Source of the DNA: Eledone cirrhosa
Lineage: Eukaryota
Length of the DNA: 64,000 nt
Direction: 5' to 3'
Assembly (NCBI GenBank): GCA_964016885.1
Contig: CAXHJY010000949.1
Coordinates: forward strand, 62,001 to 126,000
Of this stretch, positions 32,777 to 43,010 are shown in pieces. The notes below the pieces were generated by a model. The model was not told where the DNA came from, searched no databases, and worked only from the letters and a program-made list of their open reading frames with translations. Numbering within the stretch: the stretch's first letter is position 1; each line of letters opens with the position of its first letter. Both the position numbers and the translations under genes were made by a program.

Positions 32777-33045
32777 TTAGAAAGTGAGGTTTTTTTTTAC
32801 AAAATGAAAAATAACCGAGGTGTCCTACACGAGTGGAAGTATAAAGAAAAAGGGATGAAATCGAAAATGCAACTGAAGTCTTATTTTTTAAAAATATACA
32901 TGATGTGAGAAAAACCACAGACCCTCCATCTCAACTCACCTTTTGAAAAGCAGAAGAACTGCGAAACCGGTAAAGGAACCAAATAAATATATATATTTAA
33001 ATAAGACTTCAGTTGCATTTTCGATTTCATCCCTTTTTCTTTATA
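32777..33045. mobile_element. Tail + inverted repeat element with U3-A8 hammerhead; same family as 42647-43010
   Basis: Inverted arms ~32840-32887 and ~32998-33045; sense copy starts gatgtgag at 32902. Confidence 0.78.
32939..32976 (+). ncRNA. Minimal type I hammerhead ribozyme, U3-A8 core variant
   Basis: cctt-TTGAAAA-gcag aagaa ctgc-GAAA-ccgg-TA-aagg. Confidence 0.72.
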
Positions 33046-33978
33046 TATATATATATATATATATACATATATATATATATATACATATATATATATACAT
33101 ATATATATATATATATATATACATATATATATATATATATATATACATATATATATATATATATACATATATATATATACACATATATATATATATATAT
33201 ACATATATATATATATATATATAATACATATATATATATATACATATATATATATATACATATATACATATATACATATATATATATATACATATATATA
33301 TATATATACATATATATATATATACATATATATATATATACATATATATATATATACATATATATATATATACATATATATATATATATATATATATATA
33401 TACATACATATACATATATATATATATATACATATATATATATACATATATATATTATATACATATACATATATATATATACACATATATATATATATAC
33501 ATATAATATATATACATATATATATATACATATATATATATACACATATATATATATATTCATATATATATATACATATATATATATACAATATATATAT
33601 ACATTATATATACATATATATATACACATATATATATACACTATATATATACATATATACATATATATACATATATATATAACATATATATACATATATA
33701 TACATATATATACATATATATACATATATATACATATATATATATATTACACACATATATATATACATATATACATATATATACATATATATATACATAT
33801 ATATACATATATATACATACATATATACATATATATATACATATATATATATATATATATATACATATATATATATATATATACATATATATATATATAT
33901 ATATACATATATATATATATATATATATATACATATATATATATATATATATACATATATATATATATATATACATAT
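33045..33978. repeat. (TA)n/(TACA) microsatellite
   Basis: Direct inspection. Confidence 0.96.
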
Positions 33979-33989
33979 TAATATAGATG

Positions 33990-34040
33990 AGATTCTACAG
34001 GACTAGAACTGTTTCATTCATTAGAAATCATCAGGAATCT
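33990..34040 (-). ncRNA. Type I hammerhead ribozyme
   Basis: agattc-CTGATGA-tttc taat gaat-GAAA-cag ttctagtc ctg-TA-gaatct; canonical core, GUA site. Confidence 0.82.
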
Positions 34041-34544
34041 GGGTATCAAAAAATAAATATGGTATTTATAGGTCTCTACAAGTGGTAGGAGAGGGTGGGG
34101 AGTGGGATGGGTGCAGGTCATTGGTTGATAGAAAAGGGAATTCATTAAAAGCTAATTCTACAAAGCTATAGTTTATTTTTATTTTTATTTATATTTATTT
34201 ATGTTTTTAGAGTAACAAAGGCAGACAGAATTCTATAAACAGGTTCCGGATGGCATACCATTCCTTGTCAATAAGTTTCTCTTAAGCTAACAGATGTCTA
34301 TAAAATCAGTGGGGCGTCAGTCATGGTCGATAGAATTAAGAGAAGGGAGATTCTTTAAAAGCTAAAGTCATTAAGGTTCTACTAAGTGACAAAGGTCTAG
34401 AGAATTCTGCAGACAGATTCAAAATACTGAGTGCATATCTTACTATTATCTTCGAACTTCTCTTAAACTAATCAACTATATGCCAAAAATCAACAGACAC
34501 ATTCACAAAAAAACAAAAAAACAAAAAAACAAAAAAACACATAC

Positions 34545-39185: not shown

Positions 39186-39257
39186 TATATATATATATAT
39201 ATATATATATATATATATATATATATATATACATATATATATATATACATATATATA

Positions 39258-42200
39258 TCATCATCATCATCACCATTTTACGTCCTTTCTTCCATGCTAG
39301 CATGGGTTAGACGGGTTGTCCTGTTGTGGGCAGTGTCTGGTCGACTGACTATGCCTTCTCCATACAGAAACTGATTTGGCTTGATTTCTACAGTTGGATG
39401 ACCTTCCTAACACCAACCTCATTTACAGTGAGTGCTGGGTGCTTTTTCGTTGCGCCTACACATCCACTTTACAGTGTGGGCTGGGTTATTTTTTGCTGTG
39501 GCACCTCCACGACCACCTTGCGGTGAGGGCATATTGTCTATATGCTTCGTCGGGTACTCTGTATTACTGCATGACGCCAGAGGTCACGGTCGTGTGTCAT
39601 CGCCTTTGAGAGGTGTAATTGGGTAAGGTCGGCTTTTATCACCTCATCCCAGGTCATCTTGGGTCTCCCCACTCCGCGGTTTCCATTGACTTCTAGTGCT
39701 CTGCACCTTTTTATGCAGCTGTCATCCTTCGTACGCATCACATGTCCATACCAATGCAACCGCCTCTCCTGCACACAGCATTTGATTCCTCTTATGCTCA
39801 GTCTCTCTCTCAATTCGTTTATGCTTTGTCGTTCGCATATATTACTATTACACATCCATCGGAGCATGCAGGCTTCGTTTCTCTCTAATCTACGTAAATC
39901 TTCCACCTTCAGCGCCTAGGTCTCACTACCATGCAACATCGCTGTTCGGATACACGCATCATACAGTCTGCCTTTCATTTTGAGGGAGCAGCCTTTTGCA
40001 GCTAGCAGTGGTAGTAGTTCCCTAAACTTCTTCCATCCCGTTCTTACCCTAGTTATTGTACTTTCTGAACACCCATCTCCGCTGCTAATTCGGTCACCTA
40101 GGTAGCAGAAGCTGTCTACTGTTTCTACAGCGCCCTCCCAGAGATTGGTGGTACTTGTTTCCTGTGGCTGTTTGCTGCTTCCTGTCCCAGCACAGCTGCT
40201 ACATGTGAAGCCTTCATTCTTAATTAAGCTTCCTGAGATCCCGCTACATCTCTTGTGTACCCATTGTTTGCATTTGGGACAGAGAATGGAGTTCCTACCT
40301 ACACCTTTCCTACATACTGGGCAAGGCCATTTCCCTGAGGGGATCTGGGTTCTGTTTTCTTGTGTACTTACAAGAACCTTAGTCTTTGTCATGTTGACTT
40401 TGAGACCCTTTCTTTCTAGTGCTTGCTTCCAAGTTTGGAATTTCTTCTCTAGTTCTACCATAGATTCAGCTATAAGTGCGAGGTCATCAGCATACAGAAG
40501 TTCCCATGGGCATCCGGTCTTAAACTCCTCCGTTATTGCCTGCAGGACTATGATGAACAGGAGGGGGCTAAGAACAGAGCCCTGGTGGACCCCAACCTGT
40601 ATGCTAAATTCATCGCTATACTCATTGCTAATCCTAACTTTGCTGACTGCTCCCCTATACATGGCTTGTACCGCTTTCACAAGCCATTCATCTACTCCTA
40701 GTTTTCTAAGAGCCCACCAGATTACAGCACGTGGAACTCTGTCAAAGGCTTTCTCAAGGTCGACAAATGCCAGGTAGAGTGGCTTACTTTTAGCTAGGTA
40801 CTTTTCCTGTAACTGCCTGACAAGGAAGAGGGCATCAGTGGTGCCACTTCCTGGTACAAACCCAAATTGCATCTCGTCTAGTTTCACCCGGTCCCTAATC
40901 AACTGTGCTATAACTCTTTCTGTTACTTTAATGACCTGGTCCATCAGCTTTATACCTCTATAGTTTCCTCTATCTAGTGCATCACCTTTACCTTTGTAGC
41001 AGTTGACAATGATGCTACTGCACCAATCTTTTGGTATGACACCTTCTAGTATTACCTGGTTAACAATACGTGTGGTTATAGTGTGACCTGCATCTCGGCA
41101 GCTATACCCGATGGACCGGTTGCCTTCCCCATCTACATATCTTTGATTGCCTTACTTACTACACTGCTGCTGACTTGTACTGCTGGCCCCTCTATAGGGT
41201 CTACTTGGAGTAGGGTCTCTTCTTCCCATGCATTCTCCTCATTTAGTAATCTATCATAATGACTCTTCCATGCATCTTTCTTCTCAGCACTTGTGAGGGC
41301 AAGCTCACCTTTATCATTCCGGATACACTTCTCTCCAATGACATCACAATTCTCTCTGACATACTGCCTCGCAATCCTGAACACCTCCTGTTTCTGGTCC
41401 TCACGTTGCAAAACATGCTTGAATTTTCTATCCTCTGCTTCCCTCCTACCTAAGTATACTTGTCGCCTAGCTTCCCTCTTCGTCACTATGTAATGTACCC
41501 TGCTCCCCCCATTCTTCCATTCTTTCCATGCCTGTCTCTTGGCCTTAACTGCTTCATCTACCTTACTGTTCCACCACCAAGTCATTCTCCTCCGTCGCAT
41601 CTAGTAAGTTATTTTTTAGGAACTCCCAGTTCTCTTCTAGATTGAATGTTTCTATCTGTTCTTCTTTACTGTCGTAGGCGTTGAATATAATATCTTTAAA
41701 TCTGTTACTGGTTGAGGGGTCTTTTAGCTTCCAGATCTTTCTTCTCCAGGTTGGCCTCTGTTTCCAGGTTCATCTAGTTCTGACTGTGAGGCCGCTGACA
41801 ACTAAGCTATGTTGGGATTTACATTCCTCACTAGGGAAGACTTTTGTGTTTATGACCGTCCATCTATCACGTCCTCTGATGAGGATAAAATCTATCTGAC
41901 TAGAGTGCTGCCCTGATCTATAGGTGATCAGGTGGCTGTCAGGTTTTTTGAAGTTTGTGTTACATATCGACATGTCATTGGCATTGCAGAATTCTAGAAG
42001 TCTGAATCCTTCCTCATTTCTTGTGCCAACCCCATGGCCTCCATGGACTCTATTGAAGCCGTCGCAGTCTTTACCTACATGTCCGTTAAAATCTCCTGCG
42101 ATGATTAGGAAGTCATTGTCATTATTAGAGCAGTAGTATGCATTAGGGACTCGTAAAAACCTATCCTTAAGTTCGTCTGGCAACCCCAATTGGGGTGCAT

Positions 42201-42436
42201 AAGCTGATATTATTGTGGTAATTGTTTTATTCAGGACTAGTCTGAGTTTAATGATTCTTGCATTTACCCTGTACACTGAGATTACTTTAGCTACCCACTT
42301 GTCAGCTAGTAGTATACCTACACCACCCATCCCATCGTCATTTCCCACCCATAAAAATTTGTAGCACCGACTTTTTCCTACAAGGACTCTAGCAGACTCT
42401 CCTCTCCTTCTAGTCTCTTGCACACAGCATACATCA
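39258..42436 (-). mobile_element. RTE-type LINE (APE endonuclease + RT), decayed, 5' end lost in microsatellite
   Basis: APE motifs [36 protein letters not shown] motifs FVDLEKAFDRV, GVHQGSVLSPLLF, LLYADDL, FCYLG. Stops/frameshifts between ORFs 41770-, 41133-, 39916- and 39538-; 3' UTR with (GAT)n tail. Confidence 0.93.
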
Positions 42437-42646
42437 ATTATATATATACATATATATATATATATATATATATATATATATATATATATATATAGATATA
42501 TATATATACACATATATATATATATATATATAGATATATATATATACACATATATATATATATATATACATATATATATATACATATATATACATATATA
42601 TATATATATATATATACATATATATATATATATATATATATATATA

Positions 42647-43010
42647 TTAGAAAGTGAGGTTTTTTTTACAAAATGAAAAATAACCGAGGTGTCCTACACG
42701 AGTGAAAGTATAAAGAAAAAGAGATGAAATCGAAAATGCAACTGGAGTCATATTTTTTAAAAAAATATACATATTTATTTGGTTCCTTTACCGGTTTCGC
42801 AGTTCTTCTGCTTTACAAAAGGTGAGTTGAGATGGAGGGTCTGTGGTTTTTCTCACATCAGATGTGAGAAAAACCACAGGCCCTCCATCTCAACTCACCT
42901 TTTGAAAAGCAGATGAACTGCGAAACCGGTAAAGGAACCAAACAAATATATATATTTAAAAAAAAATAAGACTCCAATTGCATTTTCGATTTCATCTCTT
43001 TTTCTTTATA
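42647..43010. mobile_element. Tail + ~150-bp-arm palindrome with U3-A8 hammerheads
   Basis: Arms 42709-42859 and 42861-43010 with several mismatches; hammerheads at 42898-42935 (+) and 42785-42822 (-, A6 mutated). Confidence 0.8.
42898..42935 (+). ncRNA. Minimal type I hammerhead ribozyme, U3-A8 core variant
   Basis: cctt-TTGAAAA-gcag atgaa ctgc-GAAA-ccgg-TA-aagg. Confidence 0.72.

Follow-up and report, generated by a model that had tools for sequence, protein, structure and literature searches.

Small hammerhead ribozymes with a palindromic stem III, which were reportedly assigned to Penelope-like elements by Lunse, Weinberg and Breaker in 2017, are said to cleave as dimers. Nucleotides of such motifs are numbered here according to the standard hammerhead convention. 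In several natural hammerheads C3-G8 is replaced by U3-A8 (PMC3088659, 2011), and natural ribozymes of this kind are reported there to be active in vitro. Minimal U3-A8 hammerheads are described from the pseudo-long terminal repeats (pLTRs) of Penelope elements, with about 1,300 matches in Schistosoma mansoni (PMC4209133, 2014); among the texts available in the literature searched, this was the only one using the exact term U3-A8. For the minimal hammerheads of Schistosoma weak cleavage as dimers is described, in a text that does not state which core was tested (PMC4209133), and what hammerheads do in Penelope-like elements is still regarded as unclear (PMC8557442). The stretch analysed here, 64,000 nucleotides (nt) of Eledone cirrhosa (contig CAXHJY010000949.1, positions 62,001 to 126,000, hereafter the window), contains two U3-A8 hammerhead motifs, which by comparison with copies elsewhere in the genome are sibling pLTR copies of a young Penelope-like retrotransposon. 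A previous sequence-only reading of the window had announced a natural U3-A8 variant. The variant is real, but the claim was overstated, since both the exchange in general (PMC3088659) and its Penelope pLTR setting (PMC4209133) are already published, and the finding is an ordinary example.

When both strands of the window were scanned for the type I hammerhead structure without constraint on positions 3, 7 and 8, exactly two motifs were detected, which bears out the sequence reported previously at both sites (Table 1). Both exhibit the order CCTT / TTGAAAA / GCAG-loop-CTGC / GAAA / CCGG / TA / AAGG, with CCTT/AAGG as helix I, GCAG/CTGC as helix II and a loop II of AAGAA in motif 1 or ATGAA in motif 2. 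The conserved positions U3 U4 G5 A6 A7 A8 A9, G12 A13 A14, A15.1-U16.1 and A17 are present, and agreement with the type I core is reached solely via the published U3-A8 exchange for C3-G8. The hammerhead shape proposed earlier is correct, and it is that of a minimal type I motif. The cut is predicted after the A at 32972 in motif 1 and after 42931 in motif 2. The CCGG palindrome is present as claimed, but the self-complementary stretch is really the 6-mer A15.1-CCGG-U16.1 (ACCGGT), within which helix III comprises at most one or two pairs. Likewise, two copies is the right number for the plus strand, but a third, inverted copy carrying A6U, which is probably inactive, had been overlooked. Rfam, applied to positions 32890-33000 with E values up to 10, yielded no match to a hammerhead family and only chance-level matches to MALAT1 and PART1, in agreement with the earlier point that standard searches would miss the family. 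Among the best 150 of the 258 rows of the Rfam scan of the window there were just sub-threshold microRNA-type matches on TA repeats or fold-backs.

As far as the Cercyon pLTR hammerheads of S. mansoni are described in PMC4209133, the motifs of the window resemble them in type I topology, short helix I, U3-A8, G10.1-C11.1 and pLTR position, and also in occurring mostly as single truncated copies with close opposite-strand pairs and predicted dimer activity. They differ in a helix II of 4 base pairs (bp) compared to 7-8 in Cercyon, in lacking the additional base between A9 and helix II, and in a 2-nt palindromic loop III, as it is found in the variants of Drosophila virilis, rotifer, shrimp and mosquito. 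In addition, the family is much more homogeneous than the Cercyon family and exceeds it about tenfold in size (PMC4209133). A palindromic stretch 15.2-loop 3-16.2 together with G10.1-C11.1, as in minimal Penelope hammerheads, is present here and in the sister family B described below. With the palindromic-stem-III hammerheads treated in PMC6765202 the motifs share the very short stem III, the type I topology, the Penelope link and the dimer model. Unlike the natural U3-A8 covariants described in PMC3088659, they have no stable helix III and no recognisable contact between loops I and II. A non-LTR retrozyme, i.e. tandem non-coding units each with a hammerhead (10.64898/2026.07.22.740005), was rejected as a candidate, the window copies being inverted pLTR fragments of a coding element.

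Each motif lies in a short island inside (TA)n, and each island consists of an inverted arm and a forward arm which together form a fold-back. Over about 150 nt the forward arms of both islands share 92% identity; they are members of one repeat family and not the independent copies for which they had been taken. Compared to the pLTRs of locus L091, the islands show 93-97% identity. The window holds short pLTR pieces of the coding element only: tblastn gave no match to coding sequence of Penelope-like elements (PLEs) in the window, and no sequence of the second open reading frame (ORF2) is found within the 64 kb. Folding of the whole insertion 2 gave -225 kcal/mol, with the hammerhead helices at a probability of 0.0. 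Both window copies are probably inert.

The size of this family (family A) was determined by pattern matches across the 3.0-Gb genome, using reversed patterns as controls. A 30-nt motif with two free loop bases had 11,688 exact matches compared to 0 for the reversed control, and the motif is therefore no chance occurrence. For a looser U3-A8 pattern the values were 14,907 and 0, respectively, and a 22-nt tail motif outside the hammerhead had 16,942 matches. From the loci around the first 100 listed matches of the tail motif we kept 95 matches preceded by 400 nt of DNA or more, inverted partners among them being non-independent events, and the 69 distinct copies reaching 57 nt or further upstream of the cut site formed the consensus set. 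U3 and A8 were each found in 69/69 copies, making U3-A8 the family consensus. Loop II varies hardly more than the core (64-68 of the 69 copies match the majority at each position, and ATGAA occurs in 2/69). The two window copies stem from one young source element, and the difference between AAGAA and ATGAA is one point substitution in a young family, which says nothing about selection. The earlier argument that a loop II varying beside a preserved core implies selection for catalysis fails because of this single substitution among sibling copies, and the third copy, with A6U, does not agree with it either. About half of the copies carry TA for AC just 5' of helix I, which reduces helix I to 3 bp, and a 3-nt deletion shortening helix II and its loop was found in 5/69 copies (L101, L129, L160, L165, L167), possibly indicating a small source subfamily. 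DNA-type contigs of four runs showed no common variant at position 3 or 8; this comparison ended beside the cleavage site, included few contigs from the two other organisms and was not used as evidence. Apart from this family, neighbouring loci contain at least three other, unrelated hammerhead-shaped repeat motifs with the canonical C3-G8 core, in L013, L014 and L081 (CTGAAGA) and in L030/L097 and L078 (CTGATGA).

Longer family A copies extend upstream into the 3' end of a gene encoding a reverse transcriptase (RT) with endonuclease. In 30/30 loci chosen by 206 nt at the ORF stop codon, the motif was located 1,035-1,092 nt downstream on the same strand, these loci being the best BLAST matches and thus biased towards young copies. 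At L083, L091, L094 and L184 two direct pLTR copies lie about 4.66-4.68 kb apart around two overlapping frames, in the order pLTR - ORF1 - overlapping ORF2 (RT, CX4CxxC linker, GIY-YIG) - 3' untranslated region - pLTR, and the hammerheads of the full element are 4.66 kb apart. ORF2, which is open over 775 codons in L084, matches GIY-YIG above the Pfam cut-off (28.0 vs 22.6 bits) and RVT_1 0.9 bit under it (28.7 vs 29.6, E 1.3e-6). It has the linker CGRSNCGTC (CX4CxxC) before GIY-YIG and, as seen by eye, CKGC between the IY and YIG motifs and two His downstream, in agreement with the C-terminal GIY-YIG with CCHH that follows the RT in PLEs with endonuclease. ORF1 (400-450 codons, no Pfam match) overlaps the RT frame in -1 in both families, and in family A no start codon precedes the RT N-terminal motif. 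The overlap contains the heptamer U-UUU-UUA, identical in both families, which we take to be of the known -1 slippery type. A programmed frameshift is likely on these grounds; a simple search 3' of the overlap found no pseudoknot common to families A and B. A frameshifted ORF1 is listed for some animal PLE types (PMC8557442, Fig. 1 legend).

According to PMC8557442, a CX2-5CxxC linker before GIY-YIG is common to Neptune and Nematis. The element resembles these endonuclease-positive (EN+) PLEs in its C-terminal GIY-YIG, the two internal cysteines, the linker and the pLTR hammerhead (PMC8557442). Partial tandems, inverted 5'-truncated copies and microsatellite targets, as known from EN+ PLEs, were all detected and are a further likeness to Neptune and Nematis (PMC8557442), the clade here being deduced from motifs only. 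Two RT-like frames near family A copies (L043:1820-3211 and L045:3-1700, both on the plus strand) resemble further Penelope-type elements.

Among the 95 family A copies, 49 have their 5' end 61-75 nt before the cut site, compared to 3/95 at the cut site by alignment, one of them ambiguous. The reference copy has private changes in this region, and many ends scored as -69 truly reach a point between about -71 and -73. The full element has a TATAAAA with its first base at -102, 30 nt before the A of CCAGATG at -72. A position about 72 nt before the cut site is likely the pLTR transcription start, which would be readable from the DNA alone; a pLTR promoter is known in Penelope elements (PMC6765202). 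Family B has a similar A-rich box, with 7/20 sampled 5' ends at -79 to -65. The pile-up usually follows directly after (TA)n or an inverted arm, and 78/95 sampled family A copies include the whole motif. Since the 5' ends cluster at the putative transcription start, many templates would have kept an uncut 5' hammerhead if this start is right, and cleavage in a minority would still be compatible with the data. Genome-wide, 187 matches ended at the cut site (-2 to 0) compared to 71 at one control position (-4), which is about 1% of the copies and no clear excess; among the 30 loci inspected, some proved to be point mutants or duplicated locally instead of truncated, and the control position is inflated by CC-to-TT double changes. 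A splice acceptor behind the pile-up was rejected, as the ends spread over about 15 nt and share no upstream exon.

Better support for the fold than the loop argument comes from the sister family B, because it keeps U3-A8 together with compensatory stem changes. Family B (11,196 pattern matches genome-wide, e.g. L026:925-962 on the plus strand, L241 and L180) has its own RT-endonuclease and the same layout as family A, with ORF2 56% and ORF1 43% identical between the two; together the families comprise about 26,000 motif matches. U3-A8 was found in all 100 listed family B copies, although the search pattern allowed C3 and G8. Between the families one helix I pair is changed on both sides from C-G to U-A and one helix II pair from G-C to U-A, U3-A8 and the palindrome remaining unchanged. 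In six rows from both families 95.5% of the cells of helices I and II are paired. This modest evidence suggests that the fold is probably selected at the level of the source elements.

In folding calculations the monomer with its single possible helix III pair (A15.1-U16.1) reached +0.7 kcal/mol and the double hammerhead -18.9, in agreement with the earlier view that the palindrome favours a dimer. A monomer with stable helix III was thus not obtained, as expected for the minimal dimer-type subclass, and self-cleavage is predicted to be probably weak and to take place as a dimer. We are fairly confident that the two window motifs are siblings, i.e. 5'-truncated fold-back pLTR copies of a young Penelope-like element in (TA)n, with an inherited U3-A8 hammerhead predicted to be a weak, dimer-only cutter. 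Transcription would begin in the upstream pLTR 30 nt past the TATA-like box, about 72 nt before the cut site, and the full-length transcript would carry two hammerheads paired through their ACCGGU palindromes. A slow cut after GUA, perhaps helped by protein, might then release unit-length RNA able to circularise, following the model presented in PMC4209133. For insertion, the RT and endonuclease of the element would start priming on nicked (TA)n DNA where the RNA is rich in UA, and the two islands may be examples of the short or doubled-back products of such priming. About half of the sampled copies would extend across an uncut hammerhead as far as the transcription start, and selection on the fold would act on the source elements and not on the two window copies.

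Several observations weigh against this explanation or parts of it. No C3-G8 relative with the same palindrome was found in the genome (0 matches, the U3-A8 pattern serving as positive control), and by this comparison the exchange at positions 3 and 8 is inherited, not observed inside the lineage. The covariation was read from six rows picked by hand from two families, which amounts to two events, and shuffles for pairs changed on both sides gave 75/500. The clade, likely Neptune, was assigned from motifs. The dimer of lowest energy (-20.3 kcal/mol) pairs U3 with A17 and lies 1.4 kcal/mol below the active fold, an option without counterpart in a C3 core. Helix I has a probability of at most 0.01 in the context from the putative start to the end of the arm. 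In family B, 97 of the 100 listed copies carry A13C (GCAA for GAAA; GAAA in 2, GGAA in 1), and a search of a partial library found no hammerhead with A13C in the literature. Finally, when a type III hammerhead was scanned for all double mutants, the G3-C8 swap alone rescued activity and other motif mutants stayed low, as reported in PMC9901934. Weak activity is likely because few 5' ends lie at the cut site, a U3-A17 pair can form and family B has A13C; the rarely formed helix I and the sole rescue by G3-C8 (PMC9901934) argue in the same direction.

Alternatively it might be that the hammerhead is a dead or nearly dead relic, its fold being kept as an RNA handle for proteins of the element or for RNA pairing, and that transposition takes place without cleavage. 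We consider this the most serious alternative, if an unlikely one. It would account for the more than 11,000 matches which family B reached despite A13C, for the whole motif in most family A copies together with the rarity of cut-site ends, for the possible U3-A17 pair and for a helix I of merely 3 bp in about half of the sampled copies; moreover, Naiad elements are described as spreading without canonical hammerheads (PMC8557442). However, with the exception of A13C, families A and B agree in the core, in G10.1-C11.1, in the palindrome and in GUA, although their ORF2 proteins have diverged to the extent given above and their downstream flanks align poorly. The in vitro activity of natural U3-A8 ribozymes (PMC3088659) and the weak dimer cleavage of the Schistosoma hammerheads, with the reservation on the tested core made above (PMC4209133), are also unfavourable to a relic. 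With similar reserve, and only tentatively, we suggest that the pLTR hammerhead may have drifted in this lineage from a cutter to a largely non-cutting RNA handle, considering that both families exceed 11,000 copies, that U3-A17 pairing can lock the cut site, that family B has A13C and that many templates would have kept the motif uncut.

The short copies (about 150-210 nt) could also represent a self-propagating subfamily resembling short interspersed elements (SINEs) or retrozymes, which uses (TA)n as TATA box and is moved in trans. That the 5' ends concentrate sharply at one site, usually directly behind (TA)n or an inverted arm, would fit such a subfamily. It is improbable nevertheless, as the short copies carry the sequence and the TA/AC subfamily marker of the long copies, no tandem arrays were present in the loci seen, and priming at a UA-rich stretch close to where the full-length RNA begins suffices without a separate element. 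That all genomic copies are active ribozymes selected independently of each other, as the sequence-only reading had it, is highly improbable: the core differs from the majority in 11/828 cells compared to 65/1,863 for the upstream flank (hand tally, 69 copies), but much of this flank excess falls on a few repeatedly changed positions resembling source subfamilies and flank A/T positions are also nearly invariant, the copies are recent siblings whose family membership largely refutes it, the inverted window copy has A6U, insertion 2 would fold back and lose both helices, and the short copies are without the upstream TATA-like box.

For siblings of a young Penelope-like element as we propose, the practical consequence is that hammerhead counts based on CUGANGA miss whole repeat families, here the approximately 26,000 matches of families A and B. 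Family A, being young and having an intact RT-endonuclease frame, a start site that can be mapped and a sister family with a further core change, provides material on the need for cleavage. If the hammerhead has indeed drifted to a non-cutting handle, both families would offer a natural experiment on whether ribozyme cleavage is necessary for Penelope elements in the first place.

Table 1. Positions of the hammerhead motifs, the insertions and the coding element (window positions unless a locus is given)
Feature	Position	Strand	Basis or remark
U3-A8 minimal type I hammerhead motif 1	32939..32976	+	structure scan; U3 at 32943, A8 at 32948
U3-A8 hammerhead motif 2	42898..42935	+	structure scan; U3 at 42902; loop II ATGAA
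Third hammerhead copy, core TTGTAAA (A6U)	42785..42822	-	sequence of inverted arm
Insertion 1, forward arm: short 5'-truncated pLTR copy, putative transcription start to (TA)n	32901..33045	+	alignment; 95% identity to L091 pLTR
Insertion 1, inverted arm: pLTR 3' tail without hammerhead	32779..32901	-	97% identity to L091 pLTR tail
Insertion 2, forward arm: short pLTR copy	42861..43010	+	comparison with L091 pLTR
Insertion 2, inverted arm: pLTR, putative start to 3' end; near-perfect fold-back with forward arm	42649..42861	-	
(TA)n microsatellite flanks of insertion 2	42439..42647 and 43007-43081		
Long degenerate (TA)n tract around insertion 1	30759..36844		
Family A ORF1 and ORF2	L084:2959-4092 and 4005-6329	+	
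Family B ORF1 and ORF2	L241:5771-4407 and 4473-2512	-	
TATA-like box	L083:2580-2585	+	30 nt before 5'-end pile-up; pile-up copies in L101-L179

Besides the two islands, the window contains four hairpin-like stretches (16003-16107, 38973-39046, 63527-63628 and 13452-13516) which draw sub-threshold microRNA matches on one or both strands. The first of them resembles a fold-back repeat in locus L005, and all four are probably fold-back insertions of other repeat families. At 61922-63034 degenerate tandem units of 218-226 bp were observed, part of which presumably resembles the B-box of a tRNA-derived SINE.

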